Shown here one piece after another: positions 364 through 21,386 of a stretch of DNA of 23,966 nt. The notes under the pieces were generated by a model. That model searched no databases. It had not been told where the DNA came from and saw only the letters and a list, made by a program, of their open reading frames with translations. Made by a program: the position numbers and the translations under genes. The stretch is from Candidatus Thorarchaeota archaeon (GTDB taxonomy: Archaea; Asgardarchaeota; Thorarchaeia; Thorarchaeales; Thorarchaeaceae). Position 1 is the stretch's first letter; each line of letters begins with the position of its first letter. Location: positions 1 through 23,966 of the forward strand of contig JAEORO010000066.1 of assembly GCA_016840855.1 (NCBI GenBank). The letters run 5' to 3'.

Positions 364-963
364 TTGCAGACAGACATTGGTATGTTGATGGTTGCCAATC
401 TAATCTATTCGTTCAGTGTGACTCCAATTGTCATTGTTGGAGCAAGCATACTGAGAGGTCTGCTGTTACTCTCAGGTCAGAAGCGTGAGTTTGAGGACTG
501 GACCCGCAACAAGCTCATGACCTTCCTGACTATCATTTTTCTTCCAGGAACTCTTGCCTATATGGGGATACGCTTCCTAATCGCTAAGGTGTTCGGGGTC
601 AACATAGAAGACATTGGGAGTTCGTCGACCTATGGTGAAATCAATGTCTTCCTTAAGGTGGATAAACCACCACGAGTTGGTATCGTGTTAGTAGTCCTCT
701 TCCTAAACGTGGTTGCTGCAGTGTATACTGCGTTCACTCTGATTGTCCTGCCTGTGATGATATACATGGAAACATTGTGGATTGCTGTGTTCTGGTGGGT
801 AGCACTCGGAATACTGTTCAACTGCTCTCTTCGATCTGGGGATCTGTCCTTGATAGTGGCTGCTCTACGAAACAAACCACGGAGTGGAGTCATTGAGTTC
901 ATTGGTTTCATGATTATCATGGGCTTCATCTATTACACACTTTATGTGGGGGTGAGCGTGTGA
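364..963 (+). CDS. Multi-pass membrane protein, M50/zincin-peptidase-like scaffold lacking the HExxH metal ligands
   Basis: ORF track gives 295..963. TTG at 364 follows SD-like AGGATGTGA (351-359) and is preferred. About 5 hydrophobic segments. FLPGTLAYMGIRFLIAKVFGV aligns by eye to the FLPGTxxHExxHxLxAKxxGV pattern, and SLRSGDL to the distal SxxD motif. Confidence 0.75.
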   Translation: MQTDIGMLMVANLIYSFSVTPIVIVGASILRGLLLLSGQKREFEDWTRNKLMTFLTIIFLPGTLAYMGIRFLIAKVFGVNIEDIGSSSTYGEINVFLKVDKPPRVGIVLVVLFLNVVAAVYTAFTLIVLPVMIYMETLWIAVFWWVALGILFNCSLRSGDLSLIVAALRNKPRSGVIEFIGFMIIMGFIYYTLYVGVSV

Positions 964-1190
964 GCTGGCAGGAAAGGATCGAGAGAAATGTTCAGGCTCG
1001 GATAGATTCCGCTGTTCATTCTAACTCCCTACAAATGTCTCTTTCCAAAGGTCATCTGTCCCCCTCTCTCTCCGAGTCCGAGCCTGAGCACCACTCTGAC
1101 CGAGTTGTAGTCTATGAACCAGTTATCTCCAAGGCTCACCTCATAGAGATTATGATGACTGAGCAAGGATACAGGAGGAGCAAGCATTGA
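960..1190 (+). CDS. Small soluble hypothetical protein (76 aa), middle gene of the operon
   Basis: GTG start overlaps the upstream TGA (GTGA) with SD GGGGTGA. Its TGA overlaps the downstream TTG start (TTGA). Coupling on both sides supports a real gene. Confidence 0.7.
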   Translation: MSWQERIERNVQARIDSAVHSNSLQMSLSKGHLSPSLSESEPEHHSDRVVVYEPVISKAHLIEIMMTEQGYRRSKH

Positions 1191-4100
1191 AGCTTCGAGG
1201 TTTCATTATAGTGATTATCATACTTTCGATGATGAGTACTCTTGTAATAGTAGATCAACCATCTCAGTCAGGAATACACGTCGTTCAGAATGAATTAATG
1301 CATCCTGCAGCAGAGCCTGTAGTTTCAGTAGATTTTGGTCATTATATCATCATCGAGCTTCCGGGAGCTTTGCTGCCCTCTCATGGTCTAACACTTTCAT
1401 TATTCCTTACTGAACAGGGAATTGTACACGCCCTATACACTGTGAATGAAGTGTTGGCGAATCCTGCATTATTATCCAACGCTCAAGCTCTAATCATCGA
1501 TTCCAGTTGCGGGTCTGATGATGGGTCAGCTGTGAGTGAGGAGTTCATTGCGCTTCTGGTCCGAATGGACCTTCCCACTATCTTGGTCGGTCGTGCAGCA
1601 TGGCTTGTCCATAGACTCAGACAGACCAGTCCACCCTCAACCACTGCATCTATTGAGTCTTATTTGCAAACCACACCTGAGTTCAATGGGGCAGTGTTCC
1701 TCTCTCAACCAACGAGTCTTACAATTGGCTCACTCCTAACTGCGGAGACCGGTCTGACTCTACCCGTGGATGAAATACAGGCTGAACGGTCACGGTTGAT
1801 AGACCTCACGGGAACTACCACACCCGCAGCTCTCTCGCCATTACGATACGAGTCTTGGCCTCTCGATGTGTTCCTCATAGGTCCAGAAGATCCTACTCAG
1901 TGGACAGTGAATGGGAAGGGGCTCTTTGTGAACACTGTGGCTTATGCGACAGCTCTTCGAGAGACCTCTCTTGCTAATCTGTTCAGTTTAGTTCAGTCTA
2001 AAGAGGGACAGACTTTGGCTGGAGGGCTGCATCATTATCATACGCCCAACATTGAGGGCACATATCTCGCAGTCCACACAGTCCATGATCTTTCAACGTC
2101 TATAGTATTCTCATCATGGCGGTTGGACAACCAAGAACTCGTTCAAAATATTCTGGAGAGTCTCTATGAAGACTTTGGGAGTGAGGCTGGATTTGCAGAG
2201 TCTTTGTATGATAGTACAATATCAGTAGACACAACTGCAATGGGTCTCTGGCTTGTTACAGTTATGGGACTAGGTTCACAGTTTAGTGTCACAAAACTTA
2301 CTTCCTTCATAAGCACACGTCAGAGTGTAGATGGTGGGTTTTCAAACCATATGACAGTGTCATATCATGTCACTGAAGCGCTGTTTGAGAGCGGAGGGCT
2401 TGGTGCAATCAACACGGTTACTCTTGAGTCATGGCTACGATCATGCGTTGTAGATGGTGATACCGGAACTCCAGAAAACTGGGGTGGCATAGCTAAGAAC
2501 CCCATAATAGGTGAATCTCACAATATCTATTCCTCACAGTTTGTACTCTCACTCTGGATGTTAGGAAAGGCTCACACTGACCCGGCAAAGCTTACAGAAT
2601 GGATACTCGAAACAAGTAATGGTGATGGGTCCTTCAGAGATACAATCGGGGCGGACTTACATACAACAAGAGGAACTGCATCCGCTCTAACTACAATGTC
2701 TGTTTTGGGTACGTTGAATCCATCAAACACGACCTCCGGACTAGCTTGGTTCACTGCAAATCAATTGCCATCAGGAGGGTTTGGTATTGGGCTGGCAACA
2801 AATGATATTGTAGGAAAGACATGGGTCGCGGCTGAGGTTGCTGTGTGTTTGAAAGAACTGGGTTTAATCAATGGTCCAGTCGCAATGGGCATTTGCTCCT
2901 ATATTACTGCAGTACAGAACGAAGCAGGTTTTGAGCTCATGGAAGAGATACCTTCGTTGATGTGGTCCTACTGGTTGTCTGAAACGAATAGACTATCTCA
3001 CACAGGAAAGGTAGACAATAGTCTCATAGAGGACTATCTTCAAGGATTTGAAGGGACAGCATTAATTCAGTACCCTGGACATTCAAACCTATCAATTGTG
3101 ATAGCTCCTGAATATGACAATCAGCAGTATTATCTCTCTGGGGTGTGGGCTCAGTTTTTCGGCGTTGGTCTTGCTGATTCAGCAGTAGCCACACTCTCAC
3201 CTAGTCAGGTTTCTTCAATTACATTATATCTCTCAATGAGGCAAGCCTCAACAGGACACTACAAACCTTCAGTGGTTGGCCTTCCACATATGCAATATAC
3301 TGTGGCTGCGGTTGAAGCTCTGTTCCAGCTTGACGAGTTGGACACGATATGGTATAGATCTGCGTTAGAGTCAGAGGTTCTCTCTCTCTACTCCTCCGGA
3401 AGTTGGAGTCCTTCAGGATGGAATCTTGTTCCGTTTGCTGGCGTACAACCAGCAATTGACTTTTTGAGCACACGTACAGCCCTAAGACTTGGCCTCGTTA
3501 CACAAAGCATGGCATCAGAAATTGCGAGTACTATCGAGTCACGCTTGCAGTATAATGACCTCTGGACATTGAGTTGGGATGTCAAGACACTTGCCCTTCT
3601 GAATACAAGTGCTTTCTCTATTGGTCTTGATTCTATAGACCGTGAATCTATTCTCACTTGCTTAGGGTCTGCTTTTACTGAAGGTTGGTTTAATTCATCA
3701 ACCCTGTGGCAGCCTGTTTTCACAGCTGGAGTTTTTGAGATGTTGTCAATCCTTGGCTTGAGACCTCGAATGAATATCATAGAGGGGTGTTCACTCTCTG
3801 TATCTTTACCTAGTTCAGTTCAACTAGGCGAAACACTATACATTGGAGTATCCATTTACTCAATTCAATCATCATATTCAGTATTTGTGCATGCATTTGA
3901 CTCGTGGACTTTGTTCGAGAATGTCTTAGAAATAGATACTCTCTCACTCACCGTCCCCTCAAGCGTTGAGGCAATTGGAGTACAGGATATCTCACTGGTT
4001 GTTTGGAATTGGGGTATGTCAAGGGCTTTTGGCAGCGACATGACTGATGTTTTAGGATCAATGGAAGGCGCTCTAACAATCCAGACACCCTATATTGTGA

Positions 4101-7100
4101 GCGGCGATTCAATTTTGGGCACCGTATCATGGAACCTTTCAGGTGGTGGAGATGCTGGTTCTACAGATGTGACAATCAGACTGTCCAATGGGTCATACTT
4201 CAGCGACTTGACTTCAACGGAATTTAGTCCCTATGATTTCTCCATTCCCACTGATGGACTTGGAGCTGGTCCATACAATCTCATCATCACGCTTCGTAGA
4301 GATGGTTGCGATGACCTTGTACTCTGGAAAACGGTTTCGGTAGCAAACCCTGTATACACCTACATTTCTTCTATCTCACCCATACTAGGAGGGATCGGGA
4401 ATGTAACTCTGATACCCTTCTCGCTCAACTTGGAGTCCAATGGTTCCACCATTGTAGGCGAAACGGTGACTCTCACAATCTGGAATGAGAGTATGAACGT
4501 AGTCCACACGGATATGCTGGTGTCTGTTGATGGCTCCAAGGATTTCAGCTGGACTCCCTTGACACGAGGACAATACACCTTCAACCTCCATTTTACAAGG
4601 AATGATGTTCTTATGGGGAGTGAGTTCAATGGGACCATTGAGATATATGAGCAACCCTCCATCATGATTGAATTGGATGAGGTATTGATTGCTCCAGGCT
4701 CAGCCACACTCAAGGTTGTAGTACTGGATTCAGACATGGAGGGTCTCTCCGGAGCATCTGTTCATGTAATCGTCACGCTCAATGGTTCACCCATTCTTGA
4801 CTCAATAAGCAACACACTGGGCGATGGTTCACTCACATTCTCACTCGGTCTTTATACACCAGGGGCATTGGAAGTCACAATAGATATTCCAGCTGAAGGT
4901 TGGATACTAGAGATTTCTACTGATGCCTTGTATACAGTCCTTGGAGAAACAACTTTAGTGCTGAGTCTACCAGGACAACCAATCAAACAAGGAACCACAT
5001 TGGGAATCTCCGTTCTTGTACTGGACTGGACGAACTCCCCCCTCATCGGGGCAGAGGTGCAAGTGAAGGTTTCTTGGTATAATGGTACCGTGATTCGCTT
5101 AGTTATCACACATACTGGCTTCGATGGCACATGCCTAGTGTCCCACCCCTTCATCTTCGTTGGAGACTTTCGAATAGAAGCAGTATATGCTGGTTCCGGA
5201 CTTAATTCGTCAGCTAACAGCTCTGTAATCCAACGAGTGTATGTCGTTCCAACCATGATTCTCATTCATGATCCAACAGTTAATGTCGGGAATACCATAG
5301 AGTTCTTTGTTGGGATTAAAGACACATTTGGACAGTACATCATTGGAAGGACACTCAGCTTCTTCATCACCATAAGTGGTGTGACAGTTTTTCAGACTCA
5401 GGTGACATCTGTGAATGGGCTTGTAGCCATTATTTGGAGTCCATCAGAAAGAGGACTTGCTATGATTACACTCGTCCATAATGGCGATACTTTTTACCAA
5501 GCGAACTTCACTGATTCATCAATTTCAATCATGGAGGTGGTGGGTGGTACTATCGAGTTGAGTTCCTCAACAATTGATCTGTTTAATTCTGTGACCTTGA
5601 CTTACAGTCTTGTATCTACAGGTGATATTGAAGGAATAGATATTGTATTCCAAGTGTTGGGCATGGACCTTGTGCCAGTCTGGACCGAGCATGTACCAAC
5701 TGATGCTTCAGGTATTGCATGCGCAATGTATTATGCTGATGATGTACATGGGCTCCTAAAAGCAACAGCAGCTCCTGCAGATGACCAGTTTATGTTGGGT
5801 GGCGATAGACAGGTTGACCTGACTGTGAAGACTTATGTTCACACCGTGACTGACCTACTTCCCAAACCCCCATCGGTTGGACAGCTAATCGACTTGAACG
5901 TTATTCTAACAGATGATTTAGGAGTTCCAATTGATGGTCTGAGGATAACTGTCAAGCTCTACAACATCTACGACGAGTTGATTCTTACTCGTACAAAAGA
6001 TACAGTAGATGGCCTTGCTGTAGTGCAGTTCACTCCAACTCAGTGGGGACTTTACAGTGTAGAGATTTCCTCTAATGGAGGCCCCTCAGTGCATGATTTT
6101 ATTGAAGACAGGAATGATCATGAACACACAATCTATTGTCCAACAACCCTGATACTATTGATTGATAACACTGACATTGAGGTTGGAGAGAGTGTTCGAA
6201 TTATAACTCAGCTTCTCAATGTCTATGGCAATCCCCTTGTGGGTATGAATGTTAACTTGGTCATTGAAGGCGATGTTACTATAGGACCTGTGACACGTAC
6301 CACTAACTCATCTGGTTATGTGTCATGGGACGTAATCATCAATGAACAGGGTTTCTGGGAAGTACATGCTGCGTTTTATGGACTTGCCACATACTTGCCT
6401 ATGTCTGACTCCGTGGCGCTACACTCCAGTTTTGGCACGTCTGTTACCCTTGAGCTTCTAGATGATGGTGATATTATAGCTGGACTCATACCCCTGAATG
6501 TCAGTGTGCTTCTTCTGGACTCTGGAGGGACACCATTGGAAGGACGAACAATCCAGTGGGCTGCATATCATATTGTGCACGGTCTCTTAAGCAGCGGTAG
6601 TATCATTCAGCAAGGTGTGGAGCCTGAAATCATAGAGATATTACTCATGCGTGGTGGAAATTACACAGTTATTTTCTCCTTTGCAGGTTCGGCACACTAT
6701 CACTCATCCAATGCAGCCATAGACATTCTTGTGATGGGGACAAGTACCATACTCATCGATGGGCCTGCAGTTGCAGACCGAGCCAGTTTAGAAAATGTCA
6801 CAATATCAGTGATTGATGAGCTCGGATTCTTCTTGGATCTCAAAGCCTTACCAATTACAGTCACATTGACAAATGAAACTGGTTGTGTGGAGTTCACATC
6901 ATGGTTGAGTAGCGAAAGACTGGTTCTCAGTGTTTTCGGACTACATGTTGGTGATTACAATCTGAATGTCACGATAGCTGAATCAAACACTAGGATTGGC
7001 ACAGTGTTATTGTGGGAACTAAAGATTACAACACAGAGCGAGCTTCAAACAATGTTAGTAGACTTGTCCGGTATTGTCGGTCAGAAACATTCTGTTACAT

Positions 7101-8074
7101 TGCATCTTATAGACTCACTTAATGGCACTATGAGTGGCATGACGATTTGGGTAAGTCTCTACCGTCCCGACGGTGTAGAGGTTTACGGGAGCATTGGTGA
7201 TATGACACCAATTGGTCTTGTGAATGGTCTAGGGGAGGTTTCATGGACTCCTTCATGGACTGGGAATTACACACTCGTCATCCAGTACTTTGGTGATGAG
7301 TGGAGACTTCCAGCTATGATTTCGATAAGCGTACTAACTAGAAGGCTCACAACTCTCACAGTTCAGCCTCTGCAACCAGTGGACTACCCAATGAATGTGG
7401 AGATAGAAGCTACATTGTCCAGTACGTTGTCCAAGCTAGGAGGGGCTCAGATTTCCTTCGCAGTCCTTCTTGGAGAAGATTTAGTGATTCAACGGATAGA
7501 GAGTACGAATAGTAGAGGAGTATCTGTCACGTCCTTTGATGGCTTACTTGCGGGAGCATATATAATACGAGTCTATTATGCTGGTACCGACTCACTGGCT
7601 CCATGTATAGTGAACCTAGAACTTGAGGTACGACCAACTGTCAGCACCGATCTACTTCCTCTCACACAACCATATGTCAATTCGAACTGCAGTGTTAAGC
7701 TGTCTGTGGCTGTTCTTGGTGTAGATGCAGATTGGTTTGGTACGGTTGTGGTGACTGTATACAATCCACAGAACAATCTGCTACTAAATCATACTCTGCC
7801 TTTAGAGCCACTCTTTGAGCTCACATTATACATCGTTTTGAGAATAGAGGGTCAGTTTAGAGTCAACATAGCAATCATTGGACTACCAGTAGTGGAGATT
7901 TATGAGAATGAACTGCTGTTCATGTCAACATCAGTCCCAATGAGCGTGGTGCTTGATGCAGGCTCCACACCAGTAGTGGCTGGTGCTCCAATCATTACTC
8001 TAATCGGACTAGCTTTGAGAAAGAAACTGGGTGAGGCAATTGAAGGATTGCCCTCAGAATGGGGTGGCACATGA
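1187..8074 (+). CDS. Giant secreted, C-terminally membrane-anchored protein: N-terminal alpha/beta domain, prenyltransferase/squalene-cyclase-like alpha/alpha barrel repeats, multiple Ig-like domains
   Basis: 2295-aa open frame with SD AGGAGGAG at 1173-1180. Signal peptide MKLRGFIIVIIILSMMSTLVIV. QW-like repeats QSVDGGFS, NGDGSF, QLPSGGFG, QNEAGF, QASTGHY. Ig-repeat signatures DxxGxPLxG and Y/F-x-G-xxx-Y. C-terminal hydrophobic helix followed by RKK. More than 20 N-x-S/T sequons. Confidence 0.9.
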   Translation: MKLRGFIIVIIILSMMSTLVIVDQPSQSGIHVVQNELMHPAAEPVVSVDFGHYIIIELPGALLPSHGLTLSLFLTEQGIVHALYTVNEVLANPALLSNAQALIIDSSCGSDDGSAVSEEFIALLVRMDLPTILVGRAAWLVHRLRQTSPPSTTASIESYLQTTPEFNGAVFLSQPTSLTIGSLLTAETGLTLPVDEIQAERSRLIDLTGTTTPAALSPLRYESWPLDVFLIGPEDPTQWTVNGKGLFVNTVAYATALRETSLANLFSLVQSKEGQTLAGGLHHYHTPNIEGTYLAVHTVHDLSTSIVFSSWRLDNQELVQNILESLYEDFGSEAGFAESLYDSTISVDTTAMGLWLVTVMGLGSQFSVTKLTSFISTRQSVDGGFSNHMTVSYHVTEALFESGGLGAINTVTLESWLRSCVVDGDTGTPENWGGIAKNPIIGESHNIYSSQFVLSLWMLGKAHTDPAKLTEWILETSNGDGSFRDTIGADLHTTRGTASALTTMSVLGTLNPSNTTSGLAWFTANQLPSGGFGIGLATNDIVGKTWVAAEVAVCLKELGLINGPVAMGICSYITAVQNEAGFELMEEIPSLMWSYWLSETNRLSHTGKVDNSLIEDYLQGFEGTALIQYPGHSNLSIVIAPEYDNQQYYLSGVWAQFFGVGLADSAVATLSPSQVSSITLYLSMRQASTGHYKPSVVGLPHMQYTVAAVEALFQLDELDTIWYRSALESEVLSLYSSGSWSPSGWNLVPFAGVQPAIDFLSTRTALRLGLVTQSMASEIASTIESRLQYNDLWTLSWDVKTLALLNTSAFSIGLDSIDRESILTCLGSAFTEGWFNSSTLWQPVFTAGVFEMLSILGLRPRMNIIEGCSLSVSLPSSVQLGETLYIGVSIYSIQSSYSVFVHAFDSWTLFENVLEIDTLSLTVPSSVEAIGVQDISLVVWNWGMSRAFGSDMTDVLGSMEGALTIQTPYIVSGDSILGTVSWNLSGGGDAGSTDVTIRLSNGSYFSDLTSTEFSPYDFSIPTDGLGAGPYNLIITLRRDGCDDLVLWKTVSVANPVYTYISSISPILGGIGNVTLIPFSLNLESNGSTIVGETVTLTIWNESMNVVHTDMLVSVDGSKDFSWTPLTRGQYTFNLHFTRNDVLMGSEFNGTIEIYEQPSIMIELDEVLIAPGSATLKVVVLDSDMEGLSGASVHVIVTLNGSPILDSISNTLGDGSLTFSLGLYTPGALEVTIDIPAEGWILEISTDALYTVLGETTLVLSLPGQPIKQGTTLGISVLVLDWTNSPLIGAEVQVKVSWYNGTVIRLVITHTGFDGTCLVSHPFIFVGDFRIEAVYAGSGLNSSANSSVIQRVYVVPTMILIHDPTVNVGNTIEFFVGIKDTFGQYIIGRTLSFFITISGVTVFQTQVTSVNGLVAIIWSPSERGLAMITLVHNGDTFYQANFTDSSISIMEVVGGTIELSSSTIDLFNSVTLTYSLVSTGDIEGIDIVFQVLGMDLVPVWTEHVPTDASGIACAMYYADDVHGLLKATAAPADDQFMLGGDRQVDLTVKTYVHTVTDLLPKPPSVGQLIDLNVILTDDLGVPIDGLRITVKLYNIYDELILTRTKDTVDGLAVVQFTPTQWGLYSVEISSNGGPSVHDFIEDRNDHEHTIYCPTTLILLIDNTDIEVGESVRIITQLLNVYGNPLVGMNVNLVIEGDVTIGPVTRTTNSSGYVSWDVIINEQGFWEVHAAFYGLATYLPMSDSVALHSSFGTSVTLELLDDGDIIAGLIPLNVSVLLLDSGGTPLEGRTIQWAAYHIVHGLLSSGSIIQQGVEPEIIEILLMRGGNYTVIFSFAGSAHYHSSNAAIDILVMGTSTILIDGPAVADRASLENVTISVIDELGFFLDLKALPITVTLTNETGCVEFTSWLSSERLVLSVFGLHVGDYNLNVTIAESNTRIGTVLLWELKITTQSELQTMLVDLSGIVGQKHSVTLHLIDSLNGTMSGMTIWVSLYRPDGVEVYGSIGDMTPIGLVNGLGEVSWTPSWTGNYTLVIQYFGDEWRLPAMISISVLTRRLTTLTVQPLQPVDYPMNVEIEATLSSTLSKLGGAQISFAVLLGEDLVIQRIESTNSRGVSVTSFDGLLAGAYIIRVYYAGTDSLAPCIVNLELEVRPTVSTDLLPLTQPYVNSNCSVKLSVAVLGVDADWFGTVVVTVYNPQNNLLLNHTLPLEPLFELTLYIVLRIEGQFRVNIAIIGLPVVEIYENELLFMSTSVPMSVVLDAGSTPVVAGAPIITLIGLALRKKLGEAIEGLPSEWGGT

Positions 8075-8119: not shown

Positions 8120-8854
8120 TTATGCTGATGCTCCTATGTAGTAGGGGCACGATTCTTCTTCACAATCCCTATTCATTGCAGTATACTTGCACGACTTGTG
8201 CTCTGGTAACTCTCCTAAGTCTATATTGTATTCCTCTCGGAGTAGTTTCATTGCAGCTGTCAACCCATAGTACGTGGCTCTTTTACAGCACCGTTTCAAT
8301 CCATCTTGTGAGAGGTTAAGCGCATTTGTTGTGGCGACATGAGCAACTTTTCTCTCTGGACCTTTGGTTGGAGTTGAACCAATGAACAGAGCGACTGCAA
8401 CCCCTGCTCCAACACATGCGCCACAGGTACCTGCATATCCACAAAAACCACCTGGTATTTTTGCCCCTCTTCTGATGCCTTCCAATATGGTTTCAAATGT
8501 AATAGGTGATCCATCTGGTTTCGCTATCTTACGATTTTTCATGGCAATTAGAATGGCTGCAGGAACAAGACTATGGTGCTCTGGTCCGTGGAACTTAAAG
8601 CTTGGATGAGACAAAGCCTTCTTTACAACATCTTTCGGATCTTTGCTCTTATCAATCTCAGCAAGTCTCTGTAGAACGGCTATCGCATCTTCGGAATGGC
8701 AAGAATCACAAACAAAGTGTCCATTAGGACAGTAAATTGGGGATGCCTCCATTTCTCCACAATATACGCAAATTTGGTTTTTGGCGGTTTTATCATATAT
8801 AAGATCTGCACCGCACACCATACAAGCAATGTTGTGTTCTGTGCTTTCCACCAT
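8120..8854 (-). CDS. Cys-rich metal-binding protein, DUF5714-like
   Basis: 15 Cys in motifs CxxC...CxxC...CPNGHFVCDSCH, HGPEHH, PGGFCGYAGTCGACVGAG, RCCKR and C-terminal C...C...CPYY. SD GGTGA lies upstream of ATG 8854. Confidence 0.8.
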   Translation of the reverse strand: MVESTEHNIACMVCGADLIYDKTAKNQICVYCGEMEASPIYCPNGHFVCDSCHSEDAIAVLQRLAEIDKSKDPKDVVKKALSHPSFKFHGPEHHSLVPAAILIAMKNRKIAKPDGSPITFETILEGIRRGAKIPGGFCGYAGTCGACVGAGVAVALFIGSTPTKGPERKVAHVATTNALNLSQDGLKRCCKRATYYGLTAAMKLLREEYNIDLGELPEHKSCKYTAMNRDCEEESCPYYIGASA

Positions 8855-12436: not shown

Positions 12437-13432
12437 CTAACCAAGATGCCTTCGAAGTACACGCGCCGCTCTGAGAGTTATCCACTTTGATGGTTTATTC
12501 TTTTCATCTATGTCACAGAGCATCTTTCCATTGAACGTGTTCTTAAGTAACCATCTGGAATCTTGCGTTTTATTACTGATTACTAAATCAATTGATTCCT
12601 GCATCCTTCTGTCCTTCACGCTGAGTTCAGTCAATACATCCAGTACTTCTAACACATCAGATTGATAGAAGAGTGGAAAACCGAACTTCTTCCAGCCTGC
12701 TTTGTCCTTCCTGCTTCCATCAGAGTTCCGGAGATACCTAAAAATCTCATTCTCTAGCAAGATCTCTGCTTCTTGGTGAACTATCCGATTCAGGTCCTTT
12801 GACCGATGTTTTTTCGGGATTCGTGCGATTGACTTGAGTACTTTCACACCACCCATGTAGCAGTTCTCTGGGAACACTTTGTTCCTGTCAATTGGGAACG
12901 CCCTACATTTCCAGCCTCCTACATCATCGGAGTGATATTTAACTTGGAAATCAATTAGCTTCTGCGTTCTTGGATCCTCGAGATATCCAAAATGAATCAG
13001 ATAAAACAGGATATTTCCATCGATGCAGCAACCATCATTGACAACACTATCATACCCTTTCTCAGTCTTTGGAATGTCTGTAAGAAAATGTCCTGATTTC
13101 CTTTGATGGAGAAAGATATACTCTATTGCTTTCTCAATATTTGGAGTTCTCTTTGCGCCTAATTCAGCAAGAATCAGCAGATTGTGTGTAGTTGCCTTAT
13201 ATTTTGGCAAATACATAGTTCCATACGTGCCCCAGTGCCCCTCACTCTTTTGAGCTTTCATGATTGTTTTTACACATGCTGAAACCATCAACGCGTCTTG
13301 AGCATCTTTCACATCAACATCATCTGTAAGTCTATCTTCTAATTGTTGAAGCGCCCAAAATCTAACACCTGGACTCTCCGGGCTCATCAACCAATCAATA
13401 GTTCTCTGAGTGAGTACCTCCTTCCATCGCAT
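12437..13432 (-). CDS. Cytoplasmic prenyltransferase/terpene-cyclase-like alpha/alpha barrel protein of unknown function
   Basis: QW-like repeats QKSEGHW, QRKSGHF, DVGGWKC and QDSRW. YLPKYKAT, FGFPLFYQSDVLEVL and PSKWITLRA match a widespread conserved hypothetical family. No signal peptide. Confidence 0.75.
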   Translation of the reverse strand: MRWKEVLTQRTIDWLMSPESPGVRFWALQQLEDRLTDDVDVKDAQDALMVSACVKTIMKAQKSEGHWGTYGTMYLPKYKATTHNLLILAELGAKRTPNIEKAIEYIFLHQRKSGHFLTDIPKTEKGYDSVVNDGCCIDGNILFYLIHFGYLEDPRTQKLIDFQVKYHSDDVGGWKCRAFPIDRNKVFPENCYMGGVKVLKSIARIPKKHRSKDLNRIVHQEAEILLENEIFRYLRNSDGSRKDKAGWKKFGFPLFYQSDVLEVLDVLTELSVKDRRMQESIDLVISNKTQDSRWLLKNTFNGKMLCDIDEKNKPSKWITLRAARVLRRHLG

Positions 13433-14573: not shown

Positions 14574-15884
14574 CTAGAGGTCTGCTCCGGTTCTACCGCT
14601 TCCCCATGCCTCCATGGCAGCCTTCAGTTCTTCATGTCCTTCTTCTTTTGCATACTTGCTTACAGGGATGCCTTGCATCTTTGCGTCGATTGCTTGTCTG
14701 AACGCGATGGCACCTGCGCGTGGTCCCATGGGATGTGCATGGATTCCCGCTCCGGTTCCAATGACAATATCTAATCCAAGATCGTCTATGACTTCCTCAA
14801 CATGTCCCTGACTAATTCCTCCACTTGGCATCGGGGCAGTTTGTTCAATATTGTGCAGAGGCATGATCATATCGTGCGCAACATTGAGAAAACGTTCCTT
14901 GAGGACAGGCGCTTTTCCATATGGTGCTGGAAAAACTGTGATGTCCGAACCACAAATCCTGGGTAGTTTCCCGGTCACAATGTTGGATGAAATCCCTGTG
15001 ATGGGTGAGTAAGTCATTGCTCCCGTGACGTCCATGTGTGCAAGAACCGGTACTTTGGATATGTTTTCACAGACATGTCTGAATGCGTCATACCCCACAG
15101 CGAGGAAATTCATCATCAGTCCATTAGCACCAAGCTCCTGAGCTCGTTCAGCATTCTCAAACATTCGTGGGAGCTTGTCGGTGATGTTTACAGTGTAGAG
15201 TGTTTTTTCACCTTTCTCAGAGCTCGCGCGGTCAAGTGCTTCCATAAAACGTGGGATTCTGTCCTCTAATGTATTAAAATCAGGATTCGCAAGTAACTCG
15301 TCATCCTTTATGATGTCTGCTCCTCCAACAGCCGCTTCATACGCTAGATCTGCTCCCATCTGGCAGGAGGTATAGACACAAGGTTTGACCATATTATTCA
15401 GGATTGGTCTATTCTTGATTTTTAACAGCTTTCGTAGACCTTTGATACCAAACTTCGGTCCTTTGAATCCCTTTAGCCAGCTCTTTGGGAACTTCATGTC
15501 AAGACACTTGATTCTCCCATAGAGTGAGATGTTGCCTATTACAGTGCTAAACAACATTGGTATTTGCTGACCAAAGTTCTCCCAAGGATAAGCAACTTGC
15601 ATGATGTACTCTCTTCTCTCGAGGTCCTTGGGAATACTATACTCGTATTGGGGTACTTCATAGACTCCAATGACTTTCGCAACATGTCGTCGTCGAACCT
15701 CTGGAGTTTCACCAGGTACAAGTGTCCAAGTACCCGTACTCTGTTCAACAGCAGCAGCATGTGCTAACTCCCTAGCATCCATGAATGGAGGGAGTCCAAC
15801 ATAGTATGTACAAACTACATACTTCTCCTCATCAATAGCATCTGGTAATGCATCAGGTAATGCATCGAGTGGAAGCTTTTCCAT
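14574..15884 (-). CDS. RuBisCO-like protein (form IV RLP)
   Basis: Motifs EQSTGTW, GGADIIKDDE, PMPSGG and GIHAHPMG are present. Carboxylase residues are replaced: KPK to KPC, HRA to HMD, and the H327 region reads ITVFPAPYGK. ATG 15884 follows SD-like GGTTGA (ORF track start 15899). Confidence 0.93.
   Translation of the reverse strand: MEKLPLDALPDALPDAIDEEKYVVCTYYVGLPPFMDARELAHAAAVEQSTGTWTLVPGETPEVRRRHVAKVIGVYEVPQYEYSIPKDLERREYIMQVAYPWENFGQQIPMLFSTVIGNISLYGRIKCLDMKFPKSWLKGFKGPKFGIKGLRKLLKIKNRPILNNMVKPCVYTSCQMGADLAYEAAVGGADIIKDDELLANPDFNTLEDRIPRFMEALDRASSEKGEKTLYTVNITDKLPRMFENAERAQELGANGLMMNFLAVGYDAFRHVCENISKVPVLAHMDVTGAMTYSPITGISSNIVTGKLPRICGSDITVFPAPYGKAPVLKERFLNVAHDMIMPLHNIEQTAPMPSGGISQGHVEEVIDDLGLDIVIGTGAGIHAHPMGPRAGAIAFRQAIDAKMQGIPVSKYAKEEGHEELKAAMEAWGSGRTGADL
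15838..15866. repeat. Short in-frame 12-bp tandem repeat in the RLP N-terminus (DALP-DALP-DA)
   Basis: GCATCTGGTAAT GCATCAGGTAAT GCATC on the + strand. Confidence 0.6.
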
Positions 15885-15954
15885 AACAATCAACCACACT
15901 ATTCTATGCGCGCCCGTCTTATGTTCTTTTGGAGAACTCCATTGTCTGGAAGAA

Positions 15955-17136
15955 CTATCTTCTACTTCTGATTACTAATGCAGCTACAACTATAACACCT
16001 GTCGAAACCACGCCAATAAGTAGGTAGGGGATGTCTGGTTGATTTTCGCTTGGATAAATATTCGTCACTGCTCCAAGTATTCCATCACTTACCAACCAGT
16101 CATACTCGTTGGGACCATCATCATTGTCAGAGGAAAAAACAACCACAATGTCATATTCCGGAATCACATAGATGAATTGACCATTATATCCCCTGGCAGA
16201 GTACCACTCATGCGTATCATCAAGCCACCATTGATATCCATAACTGATTCCTGAATATGGCGTTGATGGACCATGGCAGGAGCTATAGACCCAGTCTGAC
16301 GATACTACTTGTTGACTATCCCAAGTTCCGTTGTTTAGAAATAAGAGTCCAAACTTCGCCATGTCGCGTGGTCGTAGAGCAAGACTTGAACCTCCAAAAT
16401 TAACTCCTTGGGGGTCTGTCAACCACAATCTGGTTGTTATACCTAAGGGACCAAAAAGGTACTGATCTGCAAATGCAAGTGGAGTCATACCTGTGGTCAC
16501 ATTGATGATCGTTGCTAGGAGATGAGAGTTTCCGCTATTGTAATAAAATGATGAGCTTGGTTCGTGCGCCATTGGGCGATCAAGAACATACTGTGCCCAG
16601 TCTTCCGAGTCCCTCATTGCAAAGAAGTCATTGTACTCATAGTAGTTATCCTCATTCCACTCAAAACCTGACCTCATTTGCAATACATCTTCAAGTGTAA
16701 TTGCCTCTTTCCACGCACTAAGGTTTGCAATTGTTCGATCTGGAAAGAAGTCAAGCAGCAGTTGATTTGTGTTATCAATAAAACCGTGATCGATAGCAAT
16801 TCCAATCAAAGAAGAAACTACACTCTTTGTGACTGAGTAGAGAATGTGAGTATCATTCACATCATAGAGCATTGGTATGAAATATTCCTCTGAAACAAGA
16901 TATCCGTACCTAACAACTAGAAGACTCCGGATGCTAGCACCTGAATTTCTTACATGCGTATAAACTTCTTCAAGGACCGAGGAATCCATCCCCTGATCCT
17001 CAGGAGCTGAGAGTGCCCACCCCTCTGTTGGCCATACAGCAACTGGTCTGTCTGTTTGCCCATTGGTAGGCGTTGCATGAACGAACATGGACAGTATAAG
17101 AATCACGAGTACTGTTTTCAAATTCCTTGACTGCAT
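15955..17136 (-). CDS. Secreted, C-terminally anchored serine hydrolase of the class C beta-lactamase / family VIII esterase type
   Basis: Signal peptide, catalytic SxxK (SVTK), tyrosine motif FYYNSGN, LRPRDMAKFGLLFLNNGTW, YGYQWW, ARGYNGQ, and a C-terminal TM helix followed by RSRR. Confidence 0.9.
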   Translation of the reverse strand: MQSRNLKTVLVILILSMFVHATPTNGQTDRPVAVWPTEGWALSAPEDQGMDSSVLEEVYTHVRNSGASIRSLLVVRYGYLVSEEYFIPMLYDVNDTHILYSVTKSVVSSLIGIAIDHGFIDNTNQLLLDFFPDRTIANLSAWKEAITLEDVLQMRSGFEWNEDNYYEYNDFFAMRDSEDWAQYVLDRPMAHEPSSSFYYNSGNSHLLATIINVTTGMTPLAFADQYLFGPLGITTRLWLTDPQGVNFGGSSLALRPRDMAKFGLLFLNNGTWDSQQVVSSDWVYSSCHGPSTPYSGISYGYQWWLDDTHEWYSARGYNGQFIYVIPEYDIVVVFSSDNDDGPNEYDWLVSDGILGAVTNIYPSENQPDIPYLLIGVVSTGVIVVAALVIRSRR

Positions 17137-17220
17137 AAATCAAAGTGTTTCCATAGTAAATTAAGTCTGATAGTCAAAGCAATCGTTCAACTTTGCCGTA
17201 GAGCTTCTTTTATCAAGGTG

Positions 17221-17227
17221 TTATATA
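17221..17227 (+). promoter_or_regulatory. Candidate TATA box for fhs-folD
   Basis: TTATATA about 40 nt upstream of the fhs GTG start, in a divergent intergenic region. Confidence 0.4.
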
Positions 17228-17267
17228 CCGTGAAAAATATTCGACAATTGCTAGGAAGAGTGAGATC

Positions 17268-18869
17268 GTGATTCCTGTATCTGATGTTGCAAAGAAGGCT
17301 GGGATTGATGAGAAATATCTAGAACACTATGGAAATTACATGGCGAAGATAGACCTAAACATCAGAAAGAATCTGGGAAAAAGGAAGGGCAAGCTTATTC
17401 TTGTAACTGCAACAACTCCAACTCCAGCTGGTGAAGGAAAGACAACCAACTCTATTGGACTTTCAATGGCACTTAATGCCTTGGGAAAGAATGCTGTGGT
17501 GGCATTAAGGCAACCATCCTTGGGTCCCGTCTTTGGTATTAAAGGAGGAGCCGCGGGTGGTGGCAAGTCCACAGTCGAGCCTTTTGAACAGATTAACCTG
17601 ATGTTCACTGGCGATTTTCCTGCTGTTTCAGCAGCAGGTAACCTCCTCTCAGCTATGATTGACAATTATATCCATCATGATCATCAACCTGAAATCGATG
17701 TGAGGCGAATCTATTGGCCACGAAACGTGGATATGAATGACCGTGCCTTGAGAAAGGTAATTGTCGGACTTGGGGGCCGGTTTGATGGATTTCCGCGCGA
17801 GGATAATTTTGTCATCACTTCAGCTTCAGAAGTAATGGCTGTCCTTGGATTATCAAAGGACTACGTAGATCTCAAGAAAAGACTAGGCGATATTTTGATT
17901 GCACGTTCTGAGCAGTCGAAGGAGATGTATGCAAGAGATGTAAAAGCTGAAGGTGCTATGGCAGTTATCTTGAGGGACGCGCTCAAACCAAACCTAGTGC
18001 AAACACAAGAAGGGACTCCTGCAATTATTCACACAGGACCATTTGCAAACATAGCACACGGTACTAGCTCAATAATTGGCACTGATATTGCTTTACGTCT
18101 GTTTGATTATGTAGTGATTGAGGCTGGTTTTGGTGCTGACTTAGGCGCTGAGAAATTTTTTAATATAGTCACTAGAGCCGGGGACTTCAATGTTGATGCA
18201 TGTGTTGTAATAACAACGATTCGCGCTTTGAAATATCACGGATTTGATAGACTTGAAGATGGTTTTTGCAATTTAGAAAAACACATGGAGAATATCAGCA
18301 GTTTTGGGGTGCCTGCTGTTATAGCTCTCAACCGATTTCCAGATGACACACAGGAGGAGATAGATCAACTTCGAAAATTCTGTGATGAGAAAGGCTGGAA
18401 AATGGAAGTTTCAGAGGTATATACGAAGGGTAGTGATGGAGGAAAGGCACTAGCTCAAACAGTGCTTGGAACAATAACGACCAAGGGTACTAAGCGAATA
18501 ACGTACACCTACGATTTGGAAGACCCGATAAAGACAAAGATTTTGAAAGTCGCACAGAAAATCTATGGTGCCAAGGATGTTCTATATACCACCACAGCTC
18601 GGGGGACCATCAGGTCTCTTGAGAGAAGAGAATATGGAAATCTTCCAATTTGTATAGCAAAAACCCAATTCAGTCTATCAGACTCAAAGAGCTTGAGAGG
18701 AAGGCCCTCAGGATTTGAAGTGGAAGTTACCAGTGCCAATGTCAGTAGTGGTGCTGGATTCATCGTTGTAAACATGGGCGATATTAATCTCATGCCCGGT
18801 CTGCCTGAAGAACCGTCTGCTCATGGAATGGACATAGATGCAGATGGGAATATTAGTGGAGTATTCTAA
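17268..18869 (+). CDS. fhs: Formate--tetrahydrofolate ligase
   Basis: Motifs PTPAGEGKTT, LRQPSLGPVFGIKGGAAGGG, GPFANIAHG, EAGFGADLGAEKF, CIAKTQFSLSD and MPGLP. Confidence 0.97.
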   Translation: MIPVSDVAKKAGIDEKYLEHYGNYMAKIDLNIRKNLGKRKGKLILVTATTPTPAGEGKTTNSIGLSMALNALGKNAVVALRQPSLGPVFGIKGGAAGGGKSTVEPFEQINLMFTGDFPAVSAAGNLLSAMIDNYIHHDHQPEIDVRRIYWPRNVDMNDRALRKVIVGLGGRFDGFPREDNFVITSASEVMAVLGLSKDYVDLKKRLGDILIARSEQSKEMYARDVKAEGAMAVILRDALKPNLVQTQEGTPAIIHTGPFANIAHGTSSIIGTDIALRLFDYVVIEAGFGADLGAEKFFNIVTRAGDFNVDACVVITTIRALKYHGFDRLEDGFCNLEKHMENISSFGVPAVIALNRFPDDTQEEIDQLRKFCDEKGWKMEVSEVYTKGSDGGKALAQTVLGTITTKGTKRITYTYDLEDPIKTKILKVAQKIYGAKDVLYTTTARGTIRSLERREYGNLPICIAKTQFSLSDSKSLRGRPSGFEVEVTSANVSSGAGFIVVNMGDINLMPGLPEEPSAHGMDIDADGNISGVF

Positions 18870-18880
18870 GAGGTGATTTC

Positions 18881-19765
18881 ATGTCAGACGACGATCTAAA
18901 ACCGATCTGCGAAGACCACGAACTAAAGGGTCGTCGGTTATCACATCGGATAAGAACTGAGGTGGAGAACGAAGTCACAGAACTCGTTGCTCAACATAGA
19001 ATTTCCCCAAAGATTGCAACAGTGATTGTCGGGGAAGACCCTGGTTCGCAGATGTATATCAGAATGAAACACAAGGCATCAAACAAAGCTGGCATCCTTT
19101 CAGACCATCATGATCTCCCTGAAACAACAAGTCAGGAGGAACTTCTTGAATTAATTAGGAAATTGAATAATGATTCTTCAGTCCATGGAATTCTAGTACA
19201 ACTTCCCCTGCCCAAACACATCGACGAAAAAACAATCATTGCAGCTATTAATCCTTTGAAAGATGTCGATGGGTTTTCCCCTGCAAATGTTTATCGTCTA
19301 TTCTATGGGGGCGAAGACCTTAGTGCAGCCACACCTCATGGAATTGTCACCATGCTAGACAGGATAGGTTGGAATGACCTCTCTGGTAAACATGCTGTAA
19401 TTATCAATCGGTCAACAATTGTGGGGAAACCTTTGATTATGCTTCTACTGAACAGAAACGCTACAGTCACAGTCTGTCATTCAAGAACTAAGGATTTGCC
19501 ATCTTTCACAAGACAAGCTGATGTCCTAATTAGTGCAATAGGTCGACGCACAAACGAATCCGATCCATTTTTCATCACAGCGGACATGGTCAAAGACGGT
19601 GCTGTTGTTATTGATGTTGCCACACCTCTTGGAGATGTTGATTTCGAGAGTGTGAAGAACAAGACTTTGTGCGTGACTCCTGTCCCTGGAGGAGTAGGAC
19701 CCATGACAATAGCGATGCTCTTGAAGAATGTTATTGCAGCCTATAAAGCGCAAATAGTGCAGTAA
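18881..19765 (+). CDS. folD: Bifunctional methylene-THF dehydrogenase/methenyl-THF cyclohydrolase
   Basis: YxxxK (YIRMK), HGILVQLPLP, KDVDGF, RSTIVGKP, ATVTVCHSRT and TPVPGGVGPMT. SD GAGGTGA upstream. Confidence 0.97.
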   Translation: MSDDDLKPICEDHELKGRRLSHRIRTEVENEVTELVAQHRISPKIATVIVGEDPGSQMYIRMKHKASNKAGILSDHHDLPETTSQEELLELIRKLNNDSSVHGILVQLPLPKHIDEKTIIAAINPLKDVDGFSPANVYRLFYGGEDLSAATPHGIVTMLDRIGWNDLSGKHAVIINRSTIVGKPLIMLLLNRNATVTVCHSRTKDLPSFTRQADVLISAIGRRTNESDPFFITADMVKDGAVVIDVATPLGDVDFESVKNKTLCVTPVPGGVGPMTIAMLLKNVIAAYKAQIVQ

Positions 19766-19823
19766 AGAATCATTCCCAAACGCTTTTGTATATGGACTCC
19801 CCGAGCGGGCACGGGTGAATCTT

Positions 19824-21386
19824 GTGAAAGTTGTTGAGTGTGTGCCCAACTTTTCAGAAGGAAGAGACAAAAAAATTATCGACGCCTTGGCTGAAGCTAT
19901 TAAGAGCGTTGAGGGTGTTCGACTTCTGGATGTAGAGTTTGACCATGATCACAATCGGTCTGTCTTTACATTCATAGGTGGACCGCAACAGGTGAAGAAT
20001 GCAGCTCTAAAAGCATCAGAGCTTGCAGTTGAGAAAATTAACCTAACAAGACACAAGGGTGCACATCCAAGAATGGGGGCAGTTGATGTTGTGCCATTTA
20101 TTCCACTTCATGGAACTACAATAGGTGAGTGCATCGAGCTCTCAAAGGAATTCGCTAAGGAGTTCTCGGAAAAGTGTAAGGTGCCTGTCTTTCTCTACTC
20201 AAAGTCTGCGACACGCCGAGATCGAGTTGATTTACCCAACATCCGTGAAGGTGAATTCGAAGGTCTCAGTAAAGAGATTGGAACAAATTCCGAGAAAGAT
20301 CCTGATTATGGCCCAAGCAAAATACATCCAACAGCTGGTGCAACAGCCACAGGAGCTCGGAATTTCTTGATTGCAATCAATTTCAATCTGAACACGACTA
20401 ATGTTGAGGTTGCGAAAGTATGCGCTGATGCTGTGCGGGCAACTACCGGTGGCTTTACAAATGTTCAAGGAATCGGGCTGGATCTTCCTGCAAAGAATTG
20501 CGTGCAGGTCTCTCTAAACCTAACTCATCCCAAACGTACTAAGATTCACCAAGTGCTTGAGGTTGTACGAAACGAAGCGCGTAGGTTTGGTGCAACTGTT
20601 ATTGAAACTGAAATAGTTGGAATGGTGCCTCTTTTTGCACTTCTTGATGCCCTCAGGTATTATATCCAACCAGAAAAACTAGATGAATCAATGATTCTTG
20701 ATCTCTACTATCTTGGTGGTGGAGCTGACCCCACTCAAAAGACATTTACTGAGATGTCTATGATTGAATTTGGTAACGAAGTTCGTAGAGCTCGTGCGAC
20801 TCCAGGAGGAGGTAGCGTCGCTGCAGCTCTAGGTTCGTTTGGAGCTGGTTTAGTTTGTATGGTCACTGGTCTCTCGCTAACTGGACGAAAATTTGCAGGG
20901 ATTAAGGATGAGATGCTGGAACATCGACATGCGTGCGAATACGATCGAGGAGTCCTTATGGACCTAGTTGAGAAGGACTCCAAAGCATTTGATGTTGTAA
21001 TGGATGCGATGAGAGCTCCAGCAGAAACTGCAGCTGAAATAAAGAAAAAGGAATCCTCTATTGAGAAAGCTACCATCGAAGCTGCGAAGGTACCACTTAC
21101 AACAATGCAGCACTCATACAATGCTTTGGTTCATGCACGTGCAGCAGCTGACAAAGGAAACATAAACTCGATTACGGATGCAGGTGTAGCCACTTATGCG
21201 CTCATGGCAGCAATCGAAGGTGCTGCTCTGAATGTAAGAATAAATCTAGGAAATATTAAGGACAAGTCATTTGTCGAGAAAACTGAAAATGATGTAAAGA
21301 AACTCTTGACGAATGCCACTAAGCTCAAGACTGAAATCCTTGAGATTGTTGAAACTCGAATGGCAGAACTGGCAAATGCGGCCTAA
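19824..21386 (+). CDS. ftcd: Fused glutamate formimidoyltransferase / formimidoyl-THF cyclodeaminase
   Basis: N-terminal VECVPNFSEGR, DHNRSVFT, HPRMGAVDVVPFIP and HPTAGAT mark the transferase. C-terminal TPGGGSVAA, GNINSITDAGV and NVRINL mark the cyclodeaminase. GTG 19824 follows SD GGGTGA (ORF track start 19815). Confidence 0.95.
   Translation: MKVVECVPNFSEGRDKKIIDALAEAIKSVEGVRLLDVEFDHDHNRSVFTFIGGPQQVKNAALKASELAVEKINLTRHKGAHPRMGAVDVVPFIPLHGTTIGECIELSKEFAKEFSEKCKVPVFLYSKSATRRDRVDLPNIREGEFEGLSKEIGTNSEKDPDYGPSKIHPTAGATATGARNFLIAINFNLNTTNVEVAKVCADAVRATTGGFTNVQGIGLDLPAKNCVQVSLNLTHPKRTKIHQVLEVVRNEARRFGATVIETEIVGMVPLFALLDALRYYIQPEKLDESMILDLYYLGGGADPTQKTFTEMSMIEFGNEVRRARATPGGGSVAAALGSFGAGLVCMVTGLSLTGRKFAGIKDEMLEHRHACEYDRGVLMDLVEKDSKAFDVVMDAMRAPAETAAEIKKKESSIEKATIEAAKVPLTTMQHSYNALVHARAAADKGNINSITDAGVATYALMAAIEGAALNVRINLGNIKDKSFVEKTENDVKKLLTNATKLKTEILEIVETRMAELANAA

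Follow-up and report, generated by a model that had tools for sequence, protein, structure and literature searches.

TmcP and its relatives in the DUF3267 family (PF11667) are intramembrane zinc proteases of the S2P clan (MEROPS MM) with four transmembrane (TM) helices. As presented in the available sections of PMC13712780, a protein of this type cleaves a membrane-embedded precursor and needs the histidine of its HExxH motif as well as a distal aspartate. Gene pairs that overlap in an ATGA or TGATG sequence are a second described arrangement of relevance, and the available sections of PMC6728339 and PMC10666635 present such pairs in archaea as translationally coupled via termination-reinitiation and as often encoding subunits of a complex. 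The locus considered here has features in common with both. It lies on contig JAEORO010000066.1 of a Candidatus Thorarchaeota genome (GCA_016840855.1); the whole 23,966-base contig is referred to as the window, and its source is a 3.36-Mb metagenome-assembled genome that is 92% complete (G000). Three co-directional open reading frames (ORFs) encode, in order, a small membrane protein, a 76-codon bridging or "relay" peptide and a giant surface protein. On balance, we favour the view that the locus encodes a Thorarchaeota-specific cell-surface module of two proteins, in which the middle ORF is a cis-acting translational device and not a third protein. A preliminary description of the window, made from the sequence alone, recognized no named system with this composition. 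None turned up in the literature searched, nor did any paper on the module itself.

The features of the module are as follows (nt, nucleotides).

364 to 963, + strand: membrane protein gene, ORF from the sequence, TTG start at 364 with an alternative ATG start at 295; 199 amino acids, about five hydrophobic segments, S2P-clan/DUF3267-like, Y-M-G-I-R (residues 66-70) at the HExxH site, distal aspartate D160 kept
960 to 1190, + strand: bridging ("relay") ORF, 76 codons, its GTG start (960) over the membrane gene's stop and its TGA over the giant's TTG
990 to 1092, + strand: conserved single-copy RNA element of about 105 nt, 5' arm 990-1002, loop of about 75 nt, 3' arm 1077-1089, then an invariant CACC
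1173 to 1180, + strand: Shine-Dalgarno (SD) sequence of the giant gene, AGGAGGAG, read from the sequence and the clearest of the three
1187 to 8074, + strand: giant surface protein gene, ORF from the sequence, TTG start at 1187, 2295 amino acids
7958 to 8071, + strand: C-terminal anchor of the giant, with a TM helix, a basic cluster and an 18-residue tail bearing LP(T/S/G/E)(E/D)W

Linkage of the large genes and overlaps of the ORFs

Where homologues of the two large proteins carry an organism name, it is Candidatus Thorarchaeota, except for one giant homologue labelled Promethearchaeota. In a survey of 301 genomes of the phylum, 76 of them from the family of the window and one from its sister family, the membrane protein profile matches 58 of the 76 family genomes and the sister-family genome, with five weak matches elsewhere (E 1e-4 to 1e-7). 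The first 900 residues of the giant are matched in 61 of the 76 and in the sister family, and weakly in five genomes of two other families. The two co-occur in 57 of the family genomes, and neither is seen in 14; the giant alone is matched in four and the membrane gene alone in one, where three of the four giant-only cases and the single membrane-only case are partial matches at contig ends. Wherever both are present, which is in 59 genomes (these 57, G000 and G025), the two are adjacent on the same contig and strand, and the order was read directly in each of 25 fetched loci. As judged from these matches, the membrane gene and the giant are a Thorarchaeota-restricted pair. The dedicated, tightly coupled cell-surface operon that had been proposed for the window is thus borne out as far as these two genes are concerned. 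As to whether homologues of the three genes occur unlinked in related genomes, a test that the same description had set for itself, the membrane gene and the giant stay linked, but the middle ORF has nothing conserved to link.

The ORFs overlap by 4 nt at both junctions (GTGA at 960-963, TTGA at 1187-1190), and SD-like purine runs lie 5' of each start (GGAAGGA before 364, GGGGGTGA before 960 and AGGAGGAG before 1187). The overlaps, SD sequences and non-ATG starts previously listed for the three co-directional ORFs are all present in the sequence. Most relatives likewise have GGAGG-like runs 5' of the giant's start. Homologue lengths and aligned N-termini bear out the TTG start at 364, as most of the 76 homologues are 197-199 residues long (range 168-222) and begin at the aligned residue; some records call the membrane gene from the ATG at 295 instead, for 222 residues. 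With the TTG at 1187 as its start, the giant has a proper signal peptide, as does its counterpart in G005. In the database, the giant (P0094, 2280 amino acids) is called from a position 15 codons 3' of this TTG, which cuts off the charged start of the signal peptide.

Coupled pairs are recognized by a co-directional stop/start overlap of 4 nt or 1 nt; both junctions have one, and equivalents occur in the genus and in other genera. In this the locus is like the archaeal ATGA/TGATG pairs treated in the available sections of PMC6728339 and PMC10666635, with overlaps of the 4-nt and 1-nt type conserved across genera at both junctions. It is unlike them in that many Thorarchaeota lineages use an intermediate ORF with an unconserved peptide and an embedded RNA helix, an arrangement that was not found in the literature searched. 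At seven loci in relatives (L009, L011, L013 and L016-L019), a short conserved ORF (MEEKRKAKEVW) lies about 45 nt upstream of the membrane gene's start and ends in a TGATG that overlaps the membrane gene's ATG. This ORF, which is not in the window, would lengthen the coupled chain upstream.

The bridging ORF

The bridging frame connects the membrane gene's stop with the giant's start without interruption in each of 20 genus members and in all six further lineages examined that carry the spacer. In shuffled spacers such a frame would stay open with a probability of 0.017-0.144 per lineage, and the chain of overlaps thus exceeds chance expectation. Across lineages the ORF is 44-79 codons long, with a start that overlaps the first gene's stop and a stop that overlaps or abuts the giant's start. 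The encoded peptide behaves quite differently from this frame. Protein-level matches to the 76-residue product are confined to the closest relatives (G005 and G006 out of 41 genomes, and G262 from a fetched locus), and the product has no homologue in 5.8 billion clustered proteins. Its ratio of nonsynonymous to synonymous divergence (dN/dS) is 0.57-0.91, where the membrane gene has 0.05-0.06 and the giant 0.19-0.25, and its synonymous divergence (dS) is below that of the flanking genes. Entropy at the first, second and third codon positions is 0.56, 0.66 and 0.62 in the bridging ORF, compared with 0.37, 0.10 and 1.22 in the membrane gene and 0.65, 0.42 and 1.27 in the giant of the same genomes. 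The dN/dS well under 1 and the excess of third-position change that mark purifying selection are thus both missing from the bridging ORF.

Two peptide motifs do recur: the G000 clade has SEPEH and the other genus members have RPVGHP. Indels between G000 and G006 are multiples of three. However, the motifs coincide with the arms of the RNA element, where all three codon positions are frozen, and the 5' arm is not read in a constant codon phase: phase 1 applies to the G000 clade, phase 2 to genus g25 and phase 3 to the other members of the genus. The spacer itself is absent in seven lineages (six genera and the sister family), in which the membrane gene and the giant overlap directly by 4 nt. 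Its distribution is patchy, with 13 spacer-bearing rows, seven direct-overlap rows and two unscored, and the gene tree needs at least two changes to account for it. The orphan microprotein, or "small cytoplasmic factor", of the preliminary description is not supported in view of a near-neutral dN/dS, a variable frame and absence from seven lineages; what is conserved is the RNA helix. Because the frame is always open where the spacer exists, yet the peptide is unconserved, the bridging ORF is read here as a relay. By this comparison of sequences, a translated spacer, with a frame maintained for coupling across a conserved RNA element, is a likelier description of it than a microprotein gene.

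The RNA element in the spacer

In the spacer DNA, two blocks are perfectly conserved, each the reverse complement of the other, and throughout the 20 genomes of the genus these arms enclose an element of 111-127 nt. RNAalifold gives 13 pairs, five of them with compensatory double changes, and the fold of the window copy has a z-score of -4.4. A covariance model places a single copy at 986-1096 in G000, and 29 out of 86 family genomes have one each, next to the membrane gene in every case; laxer filters bring in copies from further genera. In an alignment of 33 sequences, which was fitted to the model and therefore favours structure, 97.2% of cells pair and six of the 13 pairs show double changes (35 cells). 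None of 500 shuffles matches this, and slid controls pair in 23-62% of cells. The same alignment holds 36 cells with G-U pairs, from which it follows that the helix forms on the sense strand. A palindrome acting at the DNA level is disfavoured for the same reason, as these pairs would be A-C mismatches on the other strand.

The element does not correspond to a described RNA family at E ≤ 10 in positions 1-1500 of the window or at E ≤ 1 in the loci of five relatives, according to Rfam. Several known motifs were compared by eye against their general definitions and rejected. An H/ACA small RNA is disfavoured as in the G000 clade ACA does not follow the helix, a kink-turn as there are no tandem G-A pairs beside a bulge, and a bulge-helix-bulge intron motif as the bulge geometry is wrong. 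A C/D box was considered for ATGATGA...CTGA at 1151-1164, which is not kept in G005. An inner hairpin, CAGGUC/GACCUG, is kept in 11 genomes without covariation, and nothing is claimed for it. In many genomes, a C/U-rich stretch 3' of the 3' arm can pair with the giant's SD.

The membrane protein

The first product had been described as a pseudo-peptidase, a term that the profile comparisons uphold. It has no Pfam match at E ≤ 0.1 and no NCBIfam match, its family profile has no match to PDB sequences at E ≤ 10, and of 1.84 billion cluster representatives the same profile matches only 15. Two proteins at the weak end of that search connect the family to known peptidases. P0091 carries HEASH and matches Peptidase_M50 (E = 5e-4; 19.9 bits, under the cut-off of 27.2), and P0092 carries HELIH and matches the DUF3267 "putative zincin peptidase" family (E = 4e-7; 30.8 bits, over the cut-off of 27.1). 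Aligned with hhalign, the membrane family is related to these with probabilities of 96.2 and 95.4, respectively, and their HEASH and HELIH fall on the Y-M-G-I-R of the window protein, in which pattern search and alignment find no HExxH. Within the family, this site varies at its first two positions and always ends in R70. All 22 family sequences compared carry D160, which is also the sole invariant column across nine aligned sequences that include the HExxH-bearing relatives. Judged by hydropathy, there are about five hydrophobic segments, where an S2P protein is expected to have four or more TM helices. The hhalign relation, the Y-M-G-I-R at the HExxH site and the retained D160 together support reading the protein as a remote S2P-clan/DUF3267 derivative without a metal site, that is, as a putative pseudo-peptidase. 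The protein is strongly constrained, since many of its polar residues are invariant (R41, W46, R48, N49, R70, Y90, E92, N153, S155, D160 and E178); conserved loops include LLLSGQKREFEDWTRN and PRSG..E.

Compared with TmcP and DUF3267, the window protein is similarly small and polytopic, its profile-profile probability to HExxH-bearing relatives is 95-96%, the distal aspartate is conserved, and its gene adjoins that of a TM-bearing protein on which it would act. It differs in having x-x-G-I-R in place of HExxH and in lacking a Pfam match at the threshold given above. The neighbour is a 2295-residue surface protein and not a small bacteriocin precursor, and no TmcE-like escort protein was identified.

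Remote homologues of the membrane protein occur in other Asgard families, in G164 (with HELSH) and in G091 (without HExxH), and are not adjacent to giant genes. The G091 homologue (L061:2203-2922) has 239 residues and R-V-G-L-R at the HExxH site, with no giant gene beside it. Given this homologue, it may be that the loss of HExxH predates the pairing with the giant, or that it occurred twice.

The giant surface protein

The giant is laid out as follows, with approximate domain borders taken from sequence matches.

Residues 1-27: signal peptide
Residues ~28-290: N-domain of about 260 residues, no known family
Residues ~290-870: alpha/alpha toroid
Residues ~870-2240: immunoglobulin (Ig)-like repeats, about 1,370 residues
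Residues 2256-2262: LDAGSTP motif
Residues ~2258-2277: TM helix, followed by RKK
Residues 2288-2292: LPSEW, within the 18-residue tail

This order fits the earlier characterization of the giant as a "barrel-on-a-stalk". The N-domain (residues ~25-300) has no Pfam family at E ≤ 10 in any of three sequences. The toroid matches Pfam Prenyltrans over residues 388-561 (51.9 bits, cut-off 26.5) as well as GGTase-II beta chains in the PDB (E = 4e-4 to 4e-5), and the Ig region matches Big_1, Big_3_5 and Filamin, with MG2 and MG4 matched in relatives only. Across the family the giants are acidic, secreted proteins of 2300-2700 residues with abundant N-x-S/T sequons, and the gene is single-copy in G000. 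The window protein is acidic and poor in lysine (1.3%), with 25 N-x-S/T sequons. The LP(T/S/G/E)(E/D)W tail recurs across genera, and its tryptophan, W2292, is invariant in 22 of 22 aligned sequences.

This architecture was compared with several known classes of protein. DxDD is the catalytic motif of cyclases, DDxxD a further catalytic motif in the terpene cyclase and prenyltransferase class, and CxEQ the thioester motif; a motif search of the window giant finds none of them, nor PGF or LPxTG, and the giant is on these grounds neither a terpene enzyme, a thioester protein nor a known sorted protein. A terpene cyclase or prenyltransferase would account for the toroid, but both catalytic motifs are absent, and the domain is extracellular since it follows a signal peptide. 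Bacterial alpha-2-macroglobulins resemble the giant's relatives in combining MG2/MG4 Ig domains with an alpha/alpha toroid. The giant differs from them in its missing CxEQ, in having MG2 and MG4 in relatives only, and in domain order, with its toroid N-terminal to the Ig array and not near the C-terminus. An archaeosortase-sorted PGF-CTERM protein was rejected in view of the missing PGF and a C-terminus that consists of LDAGSTP, the TM helix, RKK and the LPSEW-bearing tail. Tetrabrachion and SlaB are archaeal envelope proteins with a stalk and a C-terminal anchor, and the giant is comparable in being large, acidic and secreted, with many sequons and a C-terminal TM anchor. Unlike them, it has a conserved cytoplasmic LPxEW tail.

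At one locus in a relative (L050, G171:C3:608800-623400), the giant gene is broken into at least five open frames, with one TGA inside the match; this is either a pseudogene or an assembly error.

Proposed mechanism and alternative explanations

In the two-protein reading, ribosomes that end the membrane protein would restart on the relay ORF, melt the helix while reading through it, and restart again on the giant, and the synthesis of the giant would thereby be tied to that of its membrane partner. The helix might limit independent initiation or set the processing or stability of the mRNA, and the C/U-rich stretch that pairs with the giant's SD would perhaps contribute. At the protein level, the pseudo-protease would most likely hold the giant's C-terminal TM helix and tail in its old substrate-binding groove, as a non-cleaving anchor or escort, and the giant would be a stalked envelope or adhesion protein. 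There are precedents for such a role in iRhom and Derlin, pseudoproteases that bind rather than cut TM clients. The window protein resembles these in combining an intramembrane protease fold, lost catalytic residues and strong conservation, an analogy that suggests retained client binding; it differs in its S2P rather than rhomboid fold and in coming from a different domain of life.

Several observations weigh against this model. There is no direct evidence of contact between the membrane protein and the giant, and the invariant polar residues of the former could equally mark a catalytic site of another kind. One genome (G041, 98% complete) has the giant without an upstream membrane gene; its locus (L092, G041:C63:39565-45138) has a gap of about 430 nt where the gene would be, and the family profile finds none genome-wide. 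Since the giant is kept there without it, the membrane partner is dispensable at least in G041. The 14 family genomes that show neither gene include some that are 90-93% complete, and it may be that the module is non-essential or that it assembles badly. As for the RNA, the seven lineages without the spacer make the element an add-on and not a core part, and the fitting of the covariation alignment to its model counts on the same side. The hairpins that would mask the giant's SD are weak (-5 to -9 kcal/mol) and cannot covary.

In a different account of the pair, the membrane protein is an active enzyme of unrecognized chemistry that cleaves or transfers the neighbouring giant at its C-terminal signal (LDAGTTP motif, TM helix, basic cluster and LPxEW tail), in the manner of archaeosortase-type enzymes with dedicated targets. 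The one-to-one adjacency in 59 of 59 genomes would be expected of such a pair, as would the motif-TM-basic layout and conserved tail of the giant and the many invariant polar residues, among them the distal aspartate of the protease fold; the parent fold cleaves TM substrates, according to the available sections of PMC13712780. We nonetheless consider a sorting or processing pair rather unlikely, as HExxH has been lost with no conserved histidine or cysteine to substitute for it, PGF and LPxTG motifs are absent, and G041 retains the giant without its partner. A conserved tail beyond the basic cluster is also unlike known C-terminal sorting signals.

The remaining alternatives concern the spacer. 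A three-protein system, with the 76-residue product as a functional, fast-evolving cytoplasmic microprotein, is compatible with an ORF that, wherever the spacer occurs, stays open and has its start and stop coupled, with the threefold indels between G000 and G006 and with the recurrent SEPEH and RPVGHP motifs. These motifs lie on RNA arms frozen at every codon position, though, and the frame of the 5' arm differs between lineages; together with the high dN/dS, the missing codon periodicity, the lack of any homologue among the 5.8 billion clustered proteins and the seven lineages without the ORF, this makes a microprotein very unlikely. Another possibility is that the spacer is the inert remnant of an inserted palindromic element, with a functionless helix and selection acting only on the open frame for coupling. 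The terminal inverted repeats of the element, its patchy distribution and at least two changes on the gene tree, and a sister-family genome without the spacer would all fit. This too seems improbable, as the helix has stayed paired in different genera through compensatory changes (double changes in 35 cells, and no match in the 500 shuffles), the synonymous divergence of the ORF is below that of the flanking genes, and each genome has one copy with no sign of a mobile family. A more elaborate role for the spacer is suggested by the secM-secA leader and by the MS2 replicase start, which is controlled by long-range pairing. The relay ORF and helix would then be a secM-like sensor, in which a ribosome pausing on the 3'-arm codons (...RPVGHP or ...SEPEH) opens the helix and uncovers the giant's SD, gating giant output by the state of membrane insertion or secretion, with the HExxH-less protein and the LPxEW tail as a transmembrane link between surface and cytoplasm. 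The locus shares with these systems a short translated ORF 5' of a secretion-related gene and a helix opened by ribosomes. In contrast to them, the window helix does not lie over the giant's SD, an arrest peptide is not shown here and the setting is archaeal, and we give the sensor model only a slim chance.

The components of the module are of known kinds, namely the S2P fold, surface proteins with a toroid and Ig-like repeats, and translational coupling. Within the literature searched, what is undescribed is the HExxH-less family, its fixed pairing with an LPxEW-tailed giant, and the relay ORF with its RNA helix. The membrane family would be a new pseudo-enzyme family derived from intramembrane proteases, and the relay and helix a new and testable cis-regulatory arrangement for coupled translation in archaea. 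The locus also suggests that not every well-formed small ORF in a coupled chain is a microprotein gene and that some are translated spacers, which bears on small-protein annotation. One cultured relative has, according to the available sections of PMC9834061, an envelope without an ordered S-layer that bears complex surface proteins instead; nothing comparable described for the Thorarchaeota envelope was found in the literature searched. With a single copy in G000, presence in most family genomes and a conserved cytoplasmic tail, the giant is a specific candidate for a major protein of the envelope or of adhesion.

Gene neighbourhood and the rest of the window

Two features precede the module in the window.

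1 to 35, + strand: 3' end of an upstream co-directional gene, ending ...KTQSTLEQWV then stop, outside the module
36 to 363, + strand: intergenic region, presumed promoter and operon leader, without significant leader structure

The same C-terminus closes a 331-residue gene with XPG_I and XPG_N domains that lies 5' of the membrane gene in G006. Blocks at about 100-117 and 225-300 of the intergenic region are shared with G005 and G006. The structured leader reported for this region was not confirmed, as positions 270-375 fold no better than shuffles (z = -0.71, equalled by 49 of 200 shuffles) and the leader repeat GGACATGGCG is not kept in the two nearest relatives.

Most members of the genus have the module between a HEAT-repeat gene (~190 residues, with a divergent ~680-residue gene, 681 residues) and a convergent gene of about 657 residues. 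In G000, these three usual neighbours are together on another contig (C97:7554-12178, loci L093-L097), and the module is instead beside an XPG/FEN1-like gene. The membrane gene, relay ORF and giant thus moved as one unit. Membrane proteins of the G000 clade are 49-53% identical to those of other genera, compared with 37-44% to those of their own genus, which hints at a cassette replacement from another genus. The giant gene tree was a quick version with weak deep support, and was used only as a hint, being too weak to prove such a replacement.

Downstream, a DUF5714 gene (8120-8854, - strand) is convergent to the giant at the position where relatives carry the 657-residue gene, and a 331-residue ORF without a Pfam match follows at 12437-13432 (- strand). 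Positions 14574 to 21386 have the appearance of a one-carbon/folate cluster: after a RuBisCO large-subunit-like gene (14574-15899, - strand) and a beta-lactamase-fold gene come the genes for formate-tetrahydrofolate ligase, FolD and formiminotransferase-cyclodeaminase, one after the other (17268-21386, + strand).

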